From Bacteroidales bacterium (GTDB lineage Bacteria; Bacteroidota; Bacteroidia; Bacteroidales; VadinHA17), in the NCBI GenBank assembly GCA_033791445.1, contig JASJGS010000121.1, positions 7,938 to 71,937 of the forward strand: a stretch of DNA of 64,000 nucleotides, in the 5' to 3' direction. How positions within the stretch are numbered: the stretch's first letter is position 1; each line of letters starts with the position of its first letter. The notes beneath the pieces were generated by a model, which saw nothing but the letters and a program-made list of their open reading frames with translations, was not told the origin of the DNA and searched no databases. Positions 28,318 through 64,000 of this stretch are shown here, piece by piece. The position numbers and the translations under genes are program-made.

Positions 28318-29410
28318 ATGGTATCACAGGAACAATTAAAAGATATTGAAAAGCGTCGGGATGCGCTGAGGAGGTATCTTTGACATCGAACAAAAAGAAT
28401 TATTTGTAAAAGGAGAAGAAATCAAAACTCAGGCTGAAGATTTTTGGAATGACCCAAAAGCTGCCGAAGAACAACTTAAGGTAGTCTCAAAAACTAAAGT
28501 CTGGCTAAATGCATATAACAATATACAAACTGCCCTGGACGACCTGGGAGTAATATATGATTTTGTAAAAGAGGGAGAGGCTACAGAAGAGGAATTAGAC
28601 CAACAATTTAATACAACCCTTAAATTAATCGAAAACCTCGAGCTTAAAAACATGCTTAGAATGGAGGAAGACTCCTTCGGCGCAATTGTGAAAATAAATT
28701 CGGGAGCAGGTGGCACTGAAAGCCTGGATTGGGCTGAAATGCTTATGAGAATGTACATTCGGTGGGGAGAAAGAAACAATTATAAGGTGCGGGAAATTGA
28801 TTACCAGCCAGGGGATGAAGCAGGCGTTAAATCCGTCACAATAGAATTAACGGGTGAGTTCGCCTACGGCTATTTAAAAAGTGAGAACGGGGTCCATCGT
28901 CTGGTTCGAATTTCGCCATTTAATGCTCAGGGAAAACGTCAAACAACATTTGCATCGGTTTTTGTATCGCCTGTCGTAGATGAAACAATTAATATAGAGA
29001 TCAACCCTGCTGACATTAGTTGGGAAACATATAGATCAAGTGGTGCGGGCGGGCAAAATGTAAATAAAGTTGAAACCGCTGTGCGACTCCGCCATGCTCC
29101 TACCGGGATTGTAATTGAAAACCAGGAAACACGTTCACAGCATAAAAATAAAGACAACGCTATGCGCTTGCTCAGGTCTCATCTTTATGAACTTGAATTA
29201 CGAAAGAAACTTGATGAGCAAGCAAAATTAGAAGGGGAAAAGTTGAAAATTGAGTGGGGCTCTCAAATCCGATCTTATGTTCTTCACCCCTATAAAATGG
29301 TTAAAGATTTACGAACAAATCACGAAACATCAAATACCCAGGCAGTACTTGATGGAGATTTGAATGATTTTATAAAATCATACCTGATGGAATTCGGTGG
29401 AAAACTCTAA
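28318..29410 (+). CDS. prfB: Peptide chain release factor 2, join(28318..28380,28382..29410) via programmed +1 frameshift
   Basis: Frame 0 gives [21 protein letters not shown], then TGA at 28381. The +1 frame continues [28 protein letters not shown]... into the tracked ORF 28652..29410, which contains SPF and GGQ ([11 protein letters not shown]). The total is about 363 aa. Confidence 0.93.
28369..28384 (+). promoter_or_regulatory. prfB +1 frameshift site: AGGAGG TAT CTT TGA C
   Basis: An SD-like AGGAGG lies 3 nt upstream of the slippery CTT followed by TGA C. This is the same architecture as the classical E. coli prfB site. Confidence 0.9.
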
Positions 29411-58609: not shown

Positions 58610-58634
58610 TTGAAATATGGGGCATTAGCTCAGT
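58610..58634 (+). repeat. 25-nt direct repeat, copy 1 (9 nt of upstream flank plus first 16 nt of tRNA-Ala)
   Basis: ttgaaatatggggcattagctcagt is identical to 58784-58808. Confidence 0.9.
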
Positions 58635-58669
58635 CCCGATAAAATTGAAATCTTTGATTTCTTAATTTA

Positions 58670-58700
58670 TCGAGGATCCTCGAAACATCATGATGTTTCG
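58670..58700. repeat. Two overlapping perfect palindromes
   Basis: tcgaggatcctcga (58670-58683) and cgaaacatcatgatgtttcg (58681-58700). Both are self-complementary by hand check. Confidence 0.9.
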
Positions 58701-58783
58701 GGATTGGAAAGTATAATTGAGCAAAGCTTTGTGAATTTACGGAACTAGAGCAGGCGGAAATTCTTTGAGATTAATGATGTTAT

Positions 58784-58808
58784 TTGAAATATGGGGCATT
58801 AGCTCAGT
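58784..58808 (+). repeat. 25-nt direct repeat, copy 2 (overlaps the 5' end of the intact tRNA-Ala)
   Basis: Identical to 58610-58634. Confidence 0.9.
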
Positions 58809-58866
58809 TGGCTAGAGCGTTTGACTGGCAGTCAAGAGGTCATCGGTTCGATTCCGATATGCTCCA
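58793..58866 (+). tRNA. tRNA-Ala (anticodon GGC)
   Basis: Hand-folded: acceptor GGGGCAT/ATGCTCC with G3:U70, D stem GCTC/GAGC, anticodon stem TTTGA/TCAAG with loop CTGGCAG, T arm ATCGG-TTCGATT-CCGAT, discriminator A. 74 nt, with no encoded CCA. Confidence 0.9.
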
Positions 58867-58957
58867 CACAGATAATCAAAGGGTTACAGTCGTTCAGATT
58901 TGTAACCCTTTCTTTTTTGCCAGAAATTTGCCAGACAGCTGATGAGAAGGGCGATTA
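58825..58957 (+). repeat. Left copy of the ~133-nt direct repeat (tRNA-Ala 3' 42 nt plus terminator plus TTGCCAG pair)
   Basis: It aligns with 62623-62755. The tRNA part is 40/42 identical. The downstream part is roughly 85% identical by hand alignment. Confidence 0.85.
58878..58918 (+). terminator. Rho-independent terminator after tRNA-Ala
   Basis: Perfect 11-bp stem aaagggttaca/tgtaacccttt with a 12-nt loop, followed by ctttttt. Confidence 0.75.
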
Positions 58958-59129
58958 CGCTCATCATTTTATCTCCTTTTTTAACTCAACGAACTGAAAA
59001 TCCCCATAGTAGTATAGTACAATTTAAGCTACATAATCTGTATATTTACTCATATACCGCTATTGGCGGTAGAATATAAGTCTTACTCATAAGTCTATGA
59101 ATTAGTATTAACAAAAAGGATGTTGAGCA

Positions 59130-61286
59130 ATGAGAATTACAATTGCATATAATCTTCGCATGGATGATACGGAAGCTACAGCTGAACTCCTCACGAAGGC
59201 GGACATAAGTCGGATATCCGATGCCATTAATAGTCTTCAACATAAAGTTACGGAAGTTGAGGTTTCGGGTAAACCAAATGATGTGATTGATCGCCTTATC
59301 GAAAGTGAACCTGATCTCATATTCAATCTGGCAGAGGGGACGATCGGCAGTTCCCGTGAGGCTTTCTATCCCGGTTTGTACGAGCAAATGGGCATTCCGT
59401 TCACTGGCGGAAACGCATCACTGCTTCATCTCAATCTTGATAAACATCTTGCTAAAACCGTCTTGGCATCGCACGGAATCAACATCCCCAAAGGTGTTTT
59501 GATTACCGAGAAGGAACGAAATCTACCCGATAATTTACAATATCCCCTAATAATTAAGCCGAATTCTGAGGGATCAAGCAAAGGTATTACACAGGATTCA
59601 GTTGTTGAATCACATGATCAGGCCCAGGAAAGAATAAGCAAATTATTAAGACATTATCCCGCAGGTCTTGTTGTTGAGGAATTTATAGGAGGCCGAGAAC
59701 TCAGTATTCCCTTGCTTGAAAGCTTTCCGGGTAAATTGCTTGACATCGTTGAACACACTTTTGACATGGACAAGATCGATGGCAAATACAATGTATATGA
59801 TTACGACATGAAACAAGGAGGAGAAGCAGCAAAATCAGTTAATGTTGTTTGTCCTGCCAATCTTAACTCCCAGGAGAATAAAGCTGTTGTAAAAATGGCC
59901 CGTGCGGTTTTCGATATCATGTCTTGCCCTGATTTTGGCCGGGTAGATATTCGATTACATACAAACGGGCAACCTTATTTTATTGAACTTAATCCGCTAC
60001 CAAGTCTTCATCCAAATGCTTCCCTTATAACGGCAGCCAAATCGCGCGGACTCGAATCAAGGGATGTTATGCGGTTGATCATTCGCTCTGCCGCTCGCCG
60101 ATACGGCTTGGCAATCAGATCGATGAAGCAGCCCAAAAACGGTAAAATTACATCAGGTGCCTCACGACCTACCGCCAGAGAACTGGGGATCCAAATTGGC
60201 CGGATGCGCCCGGGAATTTATAATGCAATCACAGATATTAAGGGCGTTCGTGTTGGCCATTTTTCTCGGATAGAAGATGGTGTTCCAATTCCCGGAGGGA
60301 CAGGGGTCAGTTGCATACGTACTGGTATTACAGCAATTATGCCCGCTGGACAGGCTTATGCCAATCGGATTGTAGCCGGTGGCTTTATCCTCAACGGTGT
60401 TGGAGAGATGGCTGGACTTACCCAAGTTATGGAAACAGGTTGGCTGGAAACACCAATTCTTCTCACAAATTCGCATTCAGTTGGTCGGGTACATGATGGC
60501 GTTGTCAACCAAATGATTAAAAAGTACCCTCTTCTTGGAACCGAAACCGATGTGATTCTACCTGTAGTTGGCGAAGCCGACGATTCTTTTCTGAACGATA
60601 TAAGAGTTGGATCCTGTTCAGCACAAGACACCGTTAAGGCCATAAAGGCGGCATCATCCGGACCGGTAATGCAAGGCTCGATTGGGGCTGGCACAGGAAT
60701 GACAACTTTTGACTTTGCCGGAGGAATAGGTACTTCTTCCCGAATATTAGACCTTTCTGGAAACGATACATTTACAGTTGGAGTGCTTGTACTTTCAAAC
60801 TTTGGAAAGATGCATAACCTTACCGTAGATGGAGCCGTTGTTGGCAGACAACTGAACGAGGAATTCGATGTGACAGGACGTCGGGAGGTGTCAGAGGGAT
60901 CAATCATCGTTGTGGTTGCCACCGATCTCCCACTCATTACCAGTCAACTTAATCGTGTAGCCAAACGGGCTGCTCTTGGTCTTGGCCGAACAGGTTCTTA
61001 TGCTGCCTCAACCAGTGGTGAAATTATAATTGCTTTCAGTACTGGTAACCGTAAGCCTCGGCAACCCAACACAAGCAGTAATTTTTTAACTTTAAAATGT
61101 ATTTCCGATTCTCATATAAATTTGGTTTATGAAGCGGTAATCGAAGCAACCGAAGAGGCCGTATTAAATGCAATTTGCTGCTCTAATGGAATGAGTGGAC
61201 GTAAGCAACGCTGGTGTCCGCCAGTTCCACACGAACGCATTATCGAACTATTGAAAAATGGAAGAACAATTCATGAAAGTAATTGA
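59130..61286 (+). CDS. Fusion protein: D-Ala-D-Ala-ligase-like ATP-grasp domain (N) plus DmpA/peptidase S58 (P1) domain (C)
   Basis: The N-terminal half has Ddl-type ATP-grasp features (PLIIKPNSEGSSKGI, VVEEFIGGRELS, GRVDIRL...YFIELNPLPSL). The C-terminal half has S58-like blocks (ITDIKGVRVGH, TGITAI, NG.GE, GSIGAGTGMTTFDFAGGIGTSS, ATDLPL). 718 aa. AAGGA lies 9 nt upstream of the ATG. Confidence 0.7.
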   Translation: MRITIAYNLRMDDTEATAELLTKADISRISDAINSLQHKVTEVEVSGKPNDVIDRLIESEPDLIFNLAEGTIGSSREAFYPGLYEQMGIPFTGGNASLLHLNLDKHLAKTVLASHGINIPKGVLITEKERNLPDNLQYPLIIKPNSEGSSKGITQDSVVESHDQAQERISKLLRHYPAGLVVEEFIGGRELSIPLLESFPGKLLDIVEHTFDMDKIDGKYNVYDYDMKQGGEAAKSVNVVCPANLNSQENKAVVKMARAVFDIMSCPDFGRVDIRLHTNGQPYFIELNPLPSLHPNASLITAAKSRGLESRDVMRLIIRSAARRYGLAIRSMKQPKNGKITSGASRPTARELGIQIGRMRPGIYNAITDIKGVRVGHFSRIEDGVPIPGGTGVSCIRTGITAIMPAGQAYANRIVAGGFILNGVGEMAGLTQVMETGWLETPILLTNSHSVGRVHDGVVNQMIKKYPLLGTETDVILPVVGEADDSFLNDIRVGSCSAQDTVKAIKAASSGPVMQGSIGAGTGMTTFDFAGGIGTSSRILDLSGNDTFTVGVLVLSNFGKMHNLTVDGAVVGRQLNEEFDVTGRREVSEGSIIVVVATDLPLITSQLNRVAKRAALGLGRTGSYAASTSGEIIIAFSTGNRKPRQPNTSSNFLTLKCISDSHINLVYEAVIEATEEAVLNAICCSNGMSGRKQRWCPPVPHERIIELLKNGRTIHESN

Positions 61287-62283
61287 GAAATATAACGACA
61301 GTCAGCACAATCCATATTGGAAGTATCAACTTGGACCGGGTACGTACGAAGTAAAAGATACGCCCCAACGCGTTGAAGCCATTAAGAAATCCCTTCACGC
61401 CGATGAACGATTTGAATTTCTTACAGCAAAGCCCTTTCCGGAAAGACTAATCACCCGACTACACCCCTATCACGATTATATCAGGAACACAGCATTAAGT
61501 TTACAAAACGATGAGGAGGAGTTTTATCCCGATCTATTCCCTGGCGAGGGTGCCCATCGCAGAAAAAGATCTGATTCACCACTCTGGGGAGGGATATGGT
61601 GTACCGATGCAGTTACACCCATTAAAAGAAAAACCTATGAAGTTGCACGTGCCTCTGCTGAAACTGCATTGACCGGCGCTGAATTAATCCGCAATGGCCA
61701 TGAAAAGACAGTATATGCCCTGTGCCGACCCTCCGGACATCATGCAGGACCCCGTGTATTTGGCGGCTATTGCTACTTTAATAATGTAGCTACTGCTGCC
61801 GAGTATTTATTACCTGAAGGTAGAGTAGCGATTGTAGATATAGATTATCATCATGGAAACGGAACACAGGAGTTTTTTGATGATATAAAGTCTGTATTTA
61901 CTGCATCCATTCATGGTGATCCTGATGATGAATACCCCTACTTTTGGGGCTATGCCGACGAAAAAGGCAAAGGTCAGGCTATTGGTACAAATCATAATGA
62001 ACCTTTTCCCAGGGGTACGCAATTGGAACAATACAGCAAAGCTTTAGATCGCATACTTAATAAAATTCGTGAGTTTAATCCTGCATACCTTATTATTGCC
62101 GCAGGTTTCGATACGCATGAGGCTGACCCTATTGGTGGCTTTAAGCTTCGCACGGAAGATTACTTTGCAATGGGTAAACAGTTTCAGTCTCTGGGAATAC
62201 CCACATTAGTATGCCAGGAAGGTGGATACAACATTGATGTTTTAGGAGAATGTGTGAAGAATTTCCTTCTTGGGCTGAGATAA
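61258..62283 (+). CDS. Histone-deacetylase-family (arginase-fold) amidohydrolase, acetylpolyamine-amidohydrolase-like
   Basis: The full catalytic set is visible: PSGHHA, DIDYHHGNGTQ, GFDTHEADP and EGGY. An alternative ATG exists at 61273. Either start overlaps the upstream stop at 61284-61286. Confidence 0.8.
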   Translation: MEEQFMKVIEKYNDSQHNPYWKYQLGPGTYEVKDTPQRVEAIKKSLHADERFEFLTAKPFPERLITRLHPYHDYIRNTALSLQNDEEEFYPDLFPGEGAHRRKRSDSPLWGGIWCTDAVTPIKRKTYEVARASAETALTGAELIRNGHEKTVYALCRPSGHHAGPRVFGGYCYFNNVATAAEYLLPEGRVAIVDIDYHHGNGTQEFFDDIKSVFTASIHGDPDDEYPYFWGYADEKGKGQAIGTNHNEPFPRGTQLEQYSKALDRILNKIREFNPAYLIIAAGFDTHEADPIGGFKLRTEDYFAMGKQFQSLGIPTLVCQEGGYNIDVLGECVKNFLLGLR

Positions 62284-62498
62284 AACAAGTGCTACTGATG
62301 AAAGAAAAAACAGAGCGCCAAAGGGTCCACTTCAGAGGTAACATCTCATCGTTCTTTAGATGAGTGAAAATTAAGCATAACAAATCACTGCACTGGATTT
62401 TTACTCCGCTGCGATCCGTAAAAACCAGTGAGCTCAATCGTTCTACAAACCACAATAATCAAAGGAAATTGAAGCATTAAAAATTGTTCCCCAGAATA

Positions 62499-62517
62499 TT
62501 GCCAGCTAAATTGCCAG
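62499..62517 (+). repeat. Paired TTGCCAG motif (12-nt spacing) inside the right end of the islet
   Basis: ttgccagctaaattgccag. Related pairs with 11-nt spacing lie at 58917-58934, 62715-62732 and 62881-62898. Confidence 0.8.
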
Positions 62518-62622
62518 CCAAGTGGAAAATGGGTGGAGTATATAGGAAAAAGAAATCTAATTATAATTGTAATGTAGTGTATGAGAGTATAATGGAGTCA
62601 GGTGGGAAATCCCGTATTGTCT

Positions 62623-62755
62623 CTGGCAGTCAAGAGGTCATCGCATCGATTCCGATATGCTCCACTCTAATAATCAAAGGGTTACAGATTTCAGAATTTG
62701 TGACCCTTTCTTTTTTGCCAGTTTTTTGCCAGCCAGCTGATCAGATTAGCGATTA
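62623..62755 (+). repeat. Right copy of the direct repeat; 62623-62664 is a displaced, decayed tRNA-Ala 3' half
   Basis: ctggcagtcaagaggtcatcgCAtcgattccgatatgctcca, with two substitutions hitting the T-stem/T-loop junction. It is followed by a near-copy of the terminator hairpin and a TTGCCAG pair. Sequence 5' of 62623 does not align with the tRNA 5' half. Confidence 0.85.
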
Positions 62756-62852
62756 TGTACACTATGTAAAGAACGATTTACTAGTACACATCAAATATAA
62801 AACTAATATCTTAGTTAATCAACTAATTCTTTAGTTTTATTGAAGGATTGCT

Positions 62853-62905
62853 GTCGTTCAGATTTGTAGCTTTTTCCTTTTTGCCAGCATTTTGCCAGCA
62901 AGTTG
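62853..62905 (+). repeat. Third, partial copy of the post-tRNA repeat (terminator loop/3' arm plus TTGCCAG pair)
   Basis: gtcgttcagatttgtagctttttcctttttgccagcattttgccagcaagttg resembles 58889-58940. It is closer to copy 1 than to copy 2 in the loop segment. Confidence 0.7.
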
Positions 62906-63085
62906 TTCGGAATAGGTGGAAACCCCTATAATATAATAGGGGTTCAATCACTAAAATGCTATACTAAGCATATTTCAACAACACATTTTCAAACCCAGGA
63001 TTGCCTGAAAATTCAGCTAATTATGTGCAAACTCACCAAACGATAGCAATTTCATTTTCTGCTATGGGTGCTGTTGTTTAAGTAG

Positions 63086-63131
63086 CTGCTTTGTGAGCAG
63101 GGAGTCGTAAGTTCAAACCTTACAACTCCAA
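63086..63131 (+). other. tRNA-like 3' fragment (hairpin plus T-arm plus acceptor 3' strand), not a complete tRNA
   Basis: Hairpin ctgct-ttgtg-agcag, then T arm gtaag-ttcaaac-cttac, then aactcca-a. No matching 5' acceptor strand, D arm or anticodon arm could be folded upstream. Confidence 0.45.
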
Positions 63132-63554: not shown

Positions 63555-64000
63555 TTGAATAAGATTTTTAGTAAGTTATTAGTTATAATTTTAATTTCAT
63601 TCCTGTACTCGATTGTTTCATGCAATAGGGAACAGGTATCAGAATTTCCACTTATTCAGACTGGTGAAGTGGTGGATATCGACAGCACCGGTGCCACTCT
63701 ATATGCTAATATTCTGGCCCTTGGAGAAGAGCCCATTCTGGATTATGGTTTTACCTGGAGCAAGACCCCCAAACCTTCAGTAGCTAACGCAAATGTTATT
63801 TCTGTTCCAGGCTCGCCAGAGACCAGAATAATCAGCCACAGGCTATCATCAGCTTTAAGAGAAGGGGGAGATTATTTTGCCAGGTCATTTATCCGGAACG
63901 CTCAATATACTACCTATGGCCGAGAAGTGCATTTCATCAGCCATGGTGGAGCAATCCCTGTAATTACCGACATCTTTCCTTTGCGGGGAAACCTGAATGA
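63555..64000 (+). CDS. Hypothetical lipoprotein, 3' end cut by window edge (possible IPT/TIG-like repeats)
   Basis: Own translation from TTG: (M)NKIFSKLLVIILISFLYSIVSCNREQVSEF... The signal peptide has an IVSC lipobox, and the frame is open to the window end. It is not in the ORF track. Confidence 0.55.
   Translation, partial: MNKIFSKLLVIILISFLYSIVSCNREQVSEFPLIQTGEVVDIDSTGATLYANILALGEEPILDYGFTWSKTPKPSVANANVISVPGSPETRIISHRLSSALREGGDYFARSFIRNAQYTTYGREVHFISHGGAIPVITDIFPLRGNLN

Follow-up and report, generated by a model that had tools for sequence, protein, structure and literature searches.

A 64-kb stretch of DNA from a Bacteroidales bacterium, called the window here, raises the question of how foreign DNA without a recognizable integrase came to lie at a tRNA gene. 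The islet comprises 3.8 kb of foreign DNA with two enzyme genes, lies directly 3' of tRNA-Ala(GGC) and is enclosed by two copies of the tRNA 3' half. Our analysis suggests that it is probably an integrase-less cassette that was inserted site-specifically in the anticodon loop of tRNA-Ala, has kept both att arms, would depend on an integrase acting in trans and belongs to a family of tRNA-anchored cassette arrays.

A repeat search of the window aligns 58825-58957 with 62623-62755 as an ungapped direct repeat of 133 nt at 84% identity. Within it, the last 42 nt of the tRNA return at 62623-62664 with 40 identical positions. Both figures agree with an earlier note on this DNA, which had put the similarity beyond these 42 nt at about 90 nt and roughly 85% identity. 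The homology sets in at C32, precisely where the anticodon loop CTGGCAG begins, and no homology to the tRNA 5' part upstream of C32 precedes the 62623 fragment in the alignment; the break that the note had seen 5' of the anticodon loop is therefore real. The two differences in the first 42 nt (GGTTCG to GCATCG) lie at the T-stem/T-loop junction, as described before; GGTTCG is unmutated in all other modules of the family and GCATCG occurs in the window fragment only. These substitutions, although counted against the cassette reading, fall outside the anticodon-loop junction. The tonB-tRNA-Ala synteny is shared with many Bacteroidales and Marinilabiliales relatives.

Features of the islet and its flanks in the window, named according to the reading favored in the text (L numbers are our handles for contigs and loci)
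Feature	Position	Strand	Basis or details
Intact tRNA-Ala(GGC), acting as attL	58793-58867	+	5' part resident, identity (core) segment formed by the 3' part (from 58825); called by both ARAGORN and Rfam (Rfam tRNA, 67.2 bits)
Core copy 1, anticodon loop to discriminator	58825-58867	+	Shared with 62623-62665; matches module HMM positions 136-178
P' arm of cassette	58868-58977	+	Terminator hairpin at about 58880-58910, TTGCCAG-N4-TTGCCAG at 58917-58934, then CAGCTGATGAGAAGGGCGATTACGCTCATCA
Horizontally acquired cargo segment	59090-62321	+	Nucleotide identity to L082 and L083-L086; composition
Gene 1, 718-aa ATP-grasp/peptidase S58 fusion	59130-61286	+	Pfam: PF07478 (D-Ala-D-Ala-ligase-like ATP-grasp), 7e-29; PF03576 (peptidase S58, DmpA/P1), 8e-105
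Gene 2, 341-aa histone-deacetylase-family enzyme	61258-62283	+	Pfam: PF00850, 1.4e-66; HDAC/acetylpolyamine amidohydrolase-like; 29-nt overlap with gene 1
Third gene, truncated start (MKEKTERQ...)	62298-62363	+	Boundary alignment with L083
P block (P arm)	62491-62622	+	TTGCCAG-N5-TTGCCAG at 62499-62517, then about 105 conserved nt abutting the tRNA fragment
tRNA-Ala 3' fragment, core copy 2, attR	62623-62665	+	Two substitutions at T-stem/T-loop junction
Second hairpin and TTGCCAG-N4-TTGCCAG (62715-62732)	62666-62755	+	Terminator-like site 62676-62709; repeat families
X block with two palindromes (AACTAATATCTTAGTT, AACTAATTCTTTAGTT)	62757-62842	+	Inverted repeat; matches after fragments in other arrays
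Third hairpin and TTGCCAG-N4-TTGCCAG (62881-62898), without tRNA part	62843-62912	+	Repeat family, 79% to reference copy

Several of these features were absent from the earlier note, namely the P block, the fourth TTGCCAG pair at its head, the hairpin-pair copy at 62843-62912 and a stretch of 25 nt at 58610-58634 that matches the tRNA 5' end perfectly. A scan for TTGCCAG pairs gave five matches against 0.36 expected, and in the islet region and eight array loci the pairs are confined to the plus strand. The segment 62666-62755 could be native flanking sequence or else a P' arm that belongs to a neighboring, older cassette. The X block is an optional module that recurs behind fragments in L025, L091, L092, L093, L099, L101, L105 and L106 (81-98% matches), and the composite of P block, fragment, X block and hairpin-pair matches L092 (11968-12398) at 77% identity across 451 nt. 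The array may run on past the end of the window.

Related Bacteroidales stack integrase-less cassettes with differing loads at tRNA-Ala, each ending in a conserved junction module of about 175 nt. The junction itself (CCGTATTnTCT followed directly by CTGGCAGTCAAGAGG) is also present in the related metagenome-assembled genome L025 and in 21 metagenome loci, with a different cargo upstream every time. The P block is 82% identical to that of L025, where the same site holds different cargo, and this exceeds the amino acid identity of the backbone proteins (TonB 52%, lipoprotein 47%, HflX 70%); its nhmmer E value is 3.8e-51. Conservation breaks sharply at the TTGCCAG pair, 5' of which the sequence differs in all cases. 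Such pairs (TTGCCAG-N4/5-TTGCCAG) stand at the head of almost all full-length P blocks, and most modules have another pair about 50 nt past the fragment. All modules share one orientation and at some of the 21 loci they stand in tandem (2-4): L092 has four, to which L097 adds another from the same contig; L105, L101, L093 and L106 have two each; and L090 has an intact tRNA followed by three modules (three cassettes). What occupies the syntenic tonB-tRNA-Ala site varies too. L109 has an integrase there and L025 a PQQ/ABC cargo of 7.1 kb; in L090 a two-component system comes first and a HepT/MNT pair follows.

The cargo is foreign in origin. Its GC content at 3.2-kb scale is 44.0% against 36.8 +/- 1.4% (maximum 40.0%), and its tetranucleotide distance is the largest in the window (z = 8.2). 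The earlier note was thus right that the cargo is richer in GC, although its hand counts (43-50% against 27-37%) overstate the difference. The two genes have 44.6% and 43.0% GC against 37.3 +/- 2.6% in 46 backbone open reading frames (ORFs; maximum 41.6%), the rise being mostly at codon positions 1 and 2 (GC3 of 0.359 and 0.342 versus 0.315 +/- 0.028 in the backbone). They overlap and are co-oriented, as had been noted, and the AAGGA motif lies 9 nt upstream of the gene 1 ATG; in the backbone, only 4 of the 46 ORFs have a Shine-Dalgarno-like motif. Homologues of gene 1 reach 94% amino acid identity and bear names from several phyla, and the two genes are also neighbors at each of the nine further loci with cargo homologues that we examined (L082-L087, L115-L117). 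At the nucleotide level the cargo closely matches contigs whose genomic backgrounds are unrelated: it is 93.6% identical to L082, a contig of 49.8% GC, over 59090-62284, and 91.4% identical to L083-L086, contigs of 38% GC, over 59091-62321; these near-identical copies in other contigs have no tRNA or att sequences. The third gene loses its homology to the donor-like contigs after codon 8, and in L083 its ORF goes on to a 58-aa product with WKWQMKHRI. The homology limits, 59090 and 62284/62321, fall within the cassette, where unrelated filler of about 110 nt and 170 nt flanks the homologous segment. Since its similarity to other contigs stops short of the cassette ends, the cargo was apparently a separate and recent acquisition from a distant donor, and the sequences point to a history of the two genes separate from that of the cassette.

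The earlier note had found no integrase in the islet, and our searches of the islet and of the whole window, including a profile of the cognate family against the six-frame translation, were equally blank; activity therefore cannot be tied to the source genome. A candidate is found elsewhere. A divergent tyrosine recombinase is encoded directly 3' of tRNA-Ala at the syntenic L109 locus and 3' of fragments in other contigs, and members of this family abut tRNA-Ala, tRNA-Val and a tRNA-Met-like fragment. PF00589 is the top Pfam match for 4/4 members, below threshold (E 0.0016-0.08), the family matches XerD at E of about 1e-5, and the motifs TGRRNAEL, KHLRQT and HSNYRTTxKHY are conserved. A sequence search of the PDB gave no match for the integrase, and its AlphaFold model (pLDDT 36.5) is too low in confidence to use. 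The L109-type integrase may act on the modules described here. However, the integrase-bearing copies have GGAGTG-type direct repeats after the hairpin and no TTGCCAG pairs, so that modules of the TTGCCAG type may rely on another protein. Both the TTGCCAG and the GGAGT repeats are putative protein-binding arm sites.

In the favored reading, a circular or otherwise recombining DNA would have brought in an attP-like module with the order TTGCCAG pair, P block of about 105 nt, 43-nt copy of the tRNA 3' half, terminator hairpin and TTGCCAG pair. Recombination between this module and the chromosomal tRNA-Ala in the anticodon loop would restore an intact tRNA with the 3' half brought in (attL and P' arm, 58825-58977) and displace the previous 3' half downstream, where it would now lie behind the P block (attR, 62491-62665). 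Both halves of the attP-like site appear to be kept, since a conserved P arm precedes the fragment in addition to the core and P' arm. The most likely enzyme would be the divergent tyrosine recombinase family found 3' of tRNA-Ala, acting in trans as the integrases of ICEs and IMEs do on CIMEs. The cassette may still be able to excise. Neither an empty site in a near-identical genome nor a circular junction was found. The proposal of the earlier note that the element is immobilized or mobilized in trans is supported, and can be refined to membership in a tandem cassette-array family.

Other explanations account for parts of this evidence. The 133 nt that the copies share reach past the tRNA into downstream sequence, as would also be expected if the tRNA 3' region had been locally duplicated in tandem and foreign DNA later inserted between the copies. 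Such a duplication was already disfavored in the note, which had argued for site-specific recombination, and it is now hardly credible: the arm beside the intact tRNA shares about 92% identity with one that follows module 3 in L092, an unrelated contig where different cargo comes next, but only 84% with the second copy in the window itself. The arm was therefore imported and not duplicated locally. In addition, the block preceding the second copy occurs in more than 20 other contigs, all with the identical boundary at the anticodon loop, and the syntenic site has other occupants in L025, L090 and L109. We also regard it as very improbable that P block and tRNA 3' half form an expressed tRNA-like small RNA gene family or a regulatory element and not a recombination site. 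The module is highly conserved over its whole length, a terminator follows each copy and AGAGTAT in the block could pair with the acceptor 3' strand, but RNAalifold on 22 modules gave a covariation term of -0.05 kcal/mol with compensatory changes in 0/35 pairs, there is no Rfam match beyond the tRNA fragment and no ARAGORN call, and the restriction of the modules to the tRNA-Ala locus in one orientation is left unexplained.

Modules of about 250 nt could, together with the tRNA, serve as portable homology arms, with a RecA-dependent double crossover swapping in array DNA of a relative without any site-specific recombinase. Between contigs the modules share 80-92% identity, each cargo lies between modules in direct orientation, the deletions in L098 and L104 end in modules, and L089 and L090 share cargo and right-hand module but not the left flank, the homology beginning at the gene end. 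The window likewise shares cargo but no left arm with L082/L083, and whole cassettes moving as units were not seen, which counts against the favored reading. Such exchange is nevertheless a rather improbable explanation of the islet, because 80-92% identity over about 200 nt is a poor RecA substrate, and neither the origin of the first module, with its junction exactly at the anticodon loop, nor the presence of an integrase family at precisely that tRNA end is explained. Alternatively, the islet may be a dead scar, in which an integrase-bearing element lost its integrase and most genes by deletion, the cargo came later by illegitimate recombination and nothing is mobilized any longer, whether in cis or in trans. 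Decay of this kind is the classical origin of CIMEs (PMC5704250), and the missing integrase, the cargo limits and filler inside the cassette, the truncated third gene and the two substitutions in the fragment fit this history. We consider it unlikely, since about 30 modules in many contigs keep the full P block of about 130 nt with high identity while the upstream sequence differs, which independent random decay would not produce; also, the P block is better conserved than the neighboring housekeeping proteins, and the P' arm type of the integrase-less cassettes (the TTGCCAG pair) differs from that of integrase-bearing copies.

The integrase-less cassette favored here resembles several known systems. 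As in tRNA-integrating islands with anticodon-loop crossover and Bacteroides mobilizable elements of the NBU1/NBU2 type, the tRNA 3' part forms the direct repeat, the intact tRNA would be regenerated from the element and a tyrosine recombinase with arm-type repeats would act. Those elements carry their own integrase beside one att site, NBU elements also have mobilization functions, and Dehalococcoides ssrA-specific islands encode their own integrase, all unlike the cassette here; with 43 nt and a further 90 nt or so of similar flank, the identity segment is also longer here than the NBU cores. The Dehalococcoides islands are likewise in tandem at a single small-RNA gene and split by direct repeats of its 3' end (PMC3146451). 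Integron cassette arrays also consist of short integrase-less cassettes that each end in a conserved recombination module, with toxin-antitoxin cassettes common and a single fixed insertion point heading the array. In contrast to integrons, the module here is not an attC-type imperfect palindrome, there is no IntI-type integrase, cassette genes occur in both orientations and insertion is at a tRNA anticodon loop, not attI.

Accretion is shared with two further systems. Streptococcus CIMEs have attL/attR flanks at a tRNA 3' end, lack integration and transfer genes, accrete in tandem with ICEs and IMEs at one site and would need the integrase of a related element for mobilization; they are described as decayed ICEs or IMEs (PMC5704250). 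The cassettes here are instead 1-4 kb long with 1-3 unrelated cargo genes and no conjugation-related remnants, many keep a complete and highly conserved P block and P' arm, and host phylum and integrase family differ. Prochlorococcus tycheposons are tRNA-targeted, use tyrosine recombinases, push older arrivals further in and leave partial tRNAs across cargo-rich islands, much of whose material lacks an integrase, but they are defined by an integrase and a replication module, neither of which is present here (bioRxiv 10.1101/2020.12.28.424599). The conserved arm of about 130 nt beside every tRNA fragment is not a described tycheposon feature, and the hosts here are Bacteroidales from sediment-type metagenomes. 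The general kind of island is already known, as CIMEs or tycheposon-like islands, and a cassette hotspot anchored at tRNA-Ala(GGC) is present in Bacteroidales and Marinilabiliales-like bacteria.

The insert at tRNA-Ala(GGC) lies between direct repeats of the tRNA 3' part, whose positions are listed with the other features of the locus in the table. The two copies agree at 40 of the first 42 nt, where the sole differences change GGTTCG to GCATCG, and the gapless similarity extends over 133 nt at 84% identity (58825-58957 recurring at 62623-62755). A four-way alignment places the start of the tRNA similarity exactly on the opening base of the anticodon loop (CTGGCAG), with none on its 5' side. 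The earlier note had described both the repeat and its abrupt 5' limit, and had read them as the product of site-specific recombination and not of tandem duplication. This reading is supported by the arm adjoining the intact tRNA: the core and P' arm (the hairpin and TTGCCAG pair behind the core) at 58825-58977 show about 92% identity to the arm that follows the third module in the array locus L092, where it stands before different cargo, and only 84% to the window's own second copy. Such a difference is predicted for the integration of attP-bearing DNA and counts against a local duplication; on this comparison, the arm adjoining the intact tRNA was imported.

Features of the tRNA-Ala(GGC) locus, in window positions
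Feature	Position	Description
25-nt perfect direct repeat	58610-58634 and 58784-58808	First 17 nt of tRNA-Ala together with the 8 nt preceding them
Insert within 25-nt repeat	58635-58783	149 nt
tRNA-Ala(GGC)	58793-58867	Intact, at one end of the insert (ARAGORN and Rfam)
Core copy 1	58825-58867	tRNA 3' part
Gene 1	59130-61286	718-aa protein in which a Ddl-like ATP-grasp domain is fused to a peptidase S58 domain
Gene 2	61258-62283	341-aa histone-deacetylase-family protein
P block	62491-62622	Opens with TTGCCAG-N5-TTGCCAG
Core copy 2	62623-62665	tRNA 3' part (displaced fragment)
Region downstream of the cassette (58825-62665)	62666-62912	Second hairpin and TTGCCAG pair, X block, third hairpin and pair
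X block	62757-62842	About 85 nt; two palindromes of AACTAATATnTTAGTT type
tRNA-like sequence	63072-63131	Anticodon arm with UGU-like loop, T arm and acceptor 3' strand, without D arm

The P block, the tRNA fragment and the downstream region together form a composite with 77% identity to L092 over 451 nt; the downstream region may represent an older cassette's arm, with the array possibly extending beyond position 64000. The tRNA-like sequence that follows (Rfam tRNA 25.6 bits, under the gathering score of 29) may be a further att remnant. On the other side of the cassette, the 149-nt insert bracketed by the 25-nt repeat contains the perfect palindrome CGAAACATCATGATGTTTCG and a second palindrome, TCGAGGATCCTCGA; it has no match among all fetched loci, and has the look of a scar left on the 5' side (D-loop) of tRNA-Ala by a separate insertion. 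The CTGGCAG on the crossover side (58825-58831) is itself a near-palindrome (CTG-N-CAG), and its complement CTGCCAG, which is present in some modules (L025, L006 and L097), is one base off the arm motif TTGCCAG. This likeness may be due to chance, or to one DNA-binding domain reading both core and arm sites.

The only genes between the core copies are two co-oriented genes with a 29-nt overlap, the first of them preceded by the AAGGA motif noted earlier, 9 nt upstream of its ATG. SD-like motifs precede only 4 of the 46 backbone ORFs, and few of them are expected in Bacteroidota. The compositional step, previously estimated by hand, was recovered in the computed profile: the cargo has a GC content of 44.0% versus 36.8 ± 1.4% in 3.2-kb windows, and its tetranucleotide distance (z = 8.2) is the greatest of the whole 64-kb window. 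By gene, the GC content is 44.6% and 43.0% versus 37.3 ± 2.6% for the 46 backbone ORFs, and since GC3 is only modestly raised (0.359 and 0.342 versus 0.315 ± 0.028), the step is partly due to amino-acid content. As to function, PADLOC gave no match to a defence system; NCBIfam gave only sub-threshold Ddl-type matches and no equivalog for gene 1, and none for gene 2; and a limited literature search returned nothing relevant.

The cargo has close copies in distinct genomic backgrounds. Positions 59090-62284 are 93.6% identical in nucleotide sequence to a JGI contig of 49.8% GC (L082), whose copy of gene 1 is named Kiritimatiellae at NCBI, and 59091-62321 are 91.4% identical to four contigs of 38% GC (L083-L086), whereas the backbone HflX finds a best match of only 74% amino-acid identity in the genome collection. 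Protein homologues of gene 1 with 80-94% identity carry Kiritimatiellia, Psychromonas, Oceanispirochaeta, Electrothrix and Prolixibacteraceae names; such MAG labels may err, but the differing flank GC still marks the backgrounds as truly distinct. On these identities, the cargo is recently transferred DNA. Genes 1 and 2 are constant neighbours in each of the nine other loci examined (L082-L087 and L115-L117). The homology begins about 40 nt upstream of the gene 1 ATG and ends at the stop codon in L082 and 37 nt further on in L083, the latter within the opening eight codons of a third gene, which the window has in truncated form. Elsewhere the pair is surrounded by toxin-antitoxin or unrelated genes, and no tRNA, P block or flanking repeats were found around it in the other contigs. 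The cargo homology thus ends inside the cassette and the other copies lack att sequences, which indicates that the cargo has a history separate from that of the att sequences now surrounding it. A plasmid origin was also considered and rejected, as the cargo gave one 230-nt match at 70% identity and the module none. Downstream of the pair, L083 encodes a KamA-like N-terminal stub, a GNAT acetyltransferase and an ADP-ribosylglycohydrolase; these neighbours hint at a role for the cargo in beta-amino-acid or acetyl-amine metabolism.

The att sequences, in turn, recur with other cargo. The P block before the displaced fragment, a feature absent from the earlier note, is 82% identical to its counterpart in the related MAG locus L025. 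Searching metagenome contigs for the exact junction pattern CCGTATTnTCT/CTGGCAGTCAAGAGG yielded 21 loci, and the pattern was absent from the viral contigs scanned. In 15 of the 16 loci with sufficient upstream sequence, the P block remains highly conserved as far as the TTGCCAG pair, upstream of which the sequences are unrelated among all these loci; in the exception, L094, conservation is limited to the last 35 nt or so of the P block. A nucleotide HMM search further revealed tandem arrays with a single orientation throughout: L092 has four modules (and L097, another region of the same contig, a module match), L090 has an intact tRNA and three modules, and L105, L101, L093 and L106 have two each. 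In the islet region and in eight array loci, TTGCCAG pairs are restricted to the tRNA strand; almost all full-length P blocks there open with such a pair, and most modules have another about 50 nt past the fragment, behind the terminator hairpin. The pair pattern occurs five times in the window against 0.36 expected, with four of the five at this locus. The genes between modules lie in both orientations and include a LytTR two-component system, HepT/MNT and AbiE-like toxin-antitoxin pairs, PQQ-repeat proteins and IS fragments. When the window is compared with L025, the module proves better preserved than the housekeeping proteins beside it, a pattern that points either to functional selection or to frequent exchange.

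Other details of the modules vary between loci. The X block recurs after tRNA fragments in L025, L091, L092, L093, L099, L101, L105 and L106, and in the comparison of L088 with L101 it behaves as an indel between arms that are homologous apart from it; it may be an operator, a promoter or a miniature insertion. In two unrelated loci (L098, near position 209, and L104, near position 1153), the tRNA fragment is cut at the identical base (...TTCGATTCCGA/AA) and followed by unrelated sequence, which suggests that the T arm holds a second hotspot of recombination or deletion. The L098 fragment adjoins a radical-SAM gene, and the same gene is found 8 kb further on in L107. A split integrase of the SSV type, or another ORF running across the fragment, was rejected: read-through ORFs such as 62484-62834 have short variable ends and no integrase domain.

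The same chromosomal site has different content in relatives. L025 shares the asd-hflX-lipoprotein-tonB-tRNA synteny and a tRNA-Ala 100% identical to that of the window; its tRNA-to-fragment interval of 7.1 kb holds wholly different cargo (a PQQ/malectin protein, an FtsX permease and an ABC ATPase), with no integrase. The site is occupied by three other cassettes in L090 and by an integrase in L109, and more distant relatives show no second fragment within 6-9 kb. The comparison of relatives proposed in the earlier note thus brought out different cargo and integrases at the site; an empty site in a near-identical genome or strain was not found, the window's TonB being without an exact match on record and the sole identical public contig (L001, from SRR23135035) covering just 58916-62408. 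In L004, L020, L038, L054, L059, L075 and L077, the fetched sequence begins, in most cases at a contig end, within tRNA-Ala(GGC) or no more than about 0.9 kb past it, and L002 ends about 185 nt beyond tonB. Such MAG contig ends fit assembly breaks at repeated modules, and arrays may be commoner than the assemblies show.

No integrase is encoded in the islet, as the earlier note had it, and the cognate-family profile found no match in a six-frame translation of the window, in which twenty other mid-size ORFs are housekeeping genes. In one window ORF, 28652-29410, the match is confined to the PCRF domain's second half plus the RF-1 domain (profile positions 95-194), the pattern expected of a putative prfB with a programmed +1 frameshift.

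A candidate recombinase is found at related loci. In L108, an ORF with tyrosine-recombinase motifs lies directly 3' of a fragment and is oriented toward it. A small family of its homologues (P0121-P0137) conserves TGRRNAEL, KHLRQT and HSNYRTTxKHY. PF00589 is the top Pfam match in all four members tested, below threshold (E 0.0016-0.08, about 13-19 bits versus a cutoff of 27.1), and XerD is matched at E of about 1e-5. Tyrosine recombinases are defined by a catalytic R...HxxR...Y signature together with the Phage_integrase fold. The family is probably one of tyrosine recombinases, and only probably because structure prediction failed (AlphaFold2 model of P0124, a 368-aa member, from an 11-sequence alignment, pLDDT 36.5) and its profile had no match among PDB sequences. 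In L109 and L110, the integrase gene is directly 3' of tRNA-Ala(GGC) at the same tonB-hflX locus; other members adjoin tRNA-Val(GAC) or a tRNA-Met-like fragment. The earlier note had proposed a search of relatives for the cargo next to a tyrosine integrase: an integrase does occur at the same tRNA in L109 and L110, and the other cargo copies stand apart from att sequences. The integrase-bearing copies have GGAGTG-type direct repeats after the hairpin instead of TTGCCAG pairs, and TGGAGT motifs are present within the P block itself. Members in L109-L114 and L118-L119 have no precomputed Pfam domain and are always directly 3' of a tRNA (Ala-GGC, Val-GAC or Met-like fragment), reading toward it; many copies are short (191-262 aa), and in L118 a member is in tandem with a canonical integrase and satellite-like genes (DnaB, small terminase).

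The simplest account is that an attP-like module would recombine with tRNA-Ala in the anticodon loop, regenerating the tRNA and displacing the old 3' half, and that repeated rounds would stack cassettes. As the cassette has no recombinase, it would depend on one supplied in trans. We infer, and have not observed, the movement of whole cassettes, because the shared cargo does not bring the left arm with it between contigs. Two alternatives are also possible, homologous exchange via the modules and decay combined with illegitimate capture; the locus differs from simple decay in keeping a complete, highly conserved att module beside ever-changing cargo. An RNA-gene reading of the module was rejected, as it lacks covariation support: RNAalifold gave 0 compensatory pairs over 22 modules, and Rfam at E <= 1 returned only the tRNA and a weak tRNA-like match. 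Site-specific recombination in trans could also be extended to a broader proposal, which we consider rather unlikely: tRNA-Ala(GGC) would be the entry point of an integron-like capture platform, in which short integrase-less cassettes are inserted and excised in trans by a divergent tyrosine recombinase that is located at tRNA 3' ends and escapes Pfam. A conserved module of about 250 nt (TTGCCAG pair, P block, tRNA 3' half, hairpin, TTGCCAG pair) would define each cassette, and the platform would yield ordered arrays of adaptive, toxin-antitoxin and regulatory genes and also take up cross-phylum DNA such as the ATP-grasp/S58-HDAC operon.

Among known systems, CIMEs keep attL and attR and have lost integration and transfer genes; they arise from ICEs or IMEs by decay and can be mobilised when a related element integrates beside them in tandem (PMC5704250). 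The window cassette likewise keeps both cores and both arms without an integrase, and integrase-bearing elements occur at the same tRNA, in tandem with modules (L108, L109), although their P' arm differs; no ICE or IME remnants were seen. Islands integrated at tRNAs by tyrosine integrases share the flanking 3'-tRNA repeats and the variable site content, but the window's cassette lacks an integrase of its own. Unlike an integron array, the module consists of a P block and tRNA fragment and not an attC palindrome, the genes lie in both orientations and there is no IntI. With tycheposon islands, only partial tRNAs and tandem stacking are shared, the tRNA-specific tyrosine (or serine) recombinase and the replication module that define a tycheposon both being absent from the window's cassette (bioRxiv 10.1101/2020.12.28.424599). 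The islet itself belongs to an ordinary class of object, the integrase-less tRNA islet; a limited literature search found no description of a cassette-array family with a conserved att module and a divergent integrase.

Integrase-less islands linked to tRNAs are usually dismissed as decayed scars. At this site, many genomes conserve the non-coding junction module while the cargo differs entirely, and several modules can be stacked; this suggests that small cassettes without an integrase are maintained as exchangeable units by which genes move among environmental Bacteroidales, with the recombinase encoded elsewhere. Should this be confirmed, Bacteroidota would possess a system for cassette capture, similar in function to integrons or the pdif modules of Acinetobacter; it could explain why several MAG contigs end within about 0.6 kb of tRNA-Ala, and genetic tools could draw on its defined att module and on the candidate integrase. 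The locus also documents that an uncharacterised operon of two enzymes was transferred very recently between genomic backgrounds.
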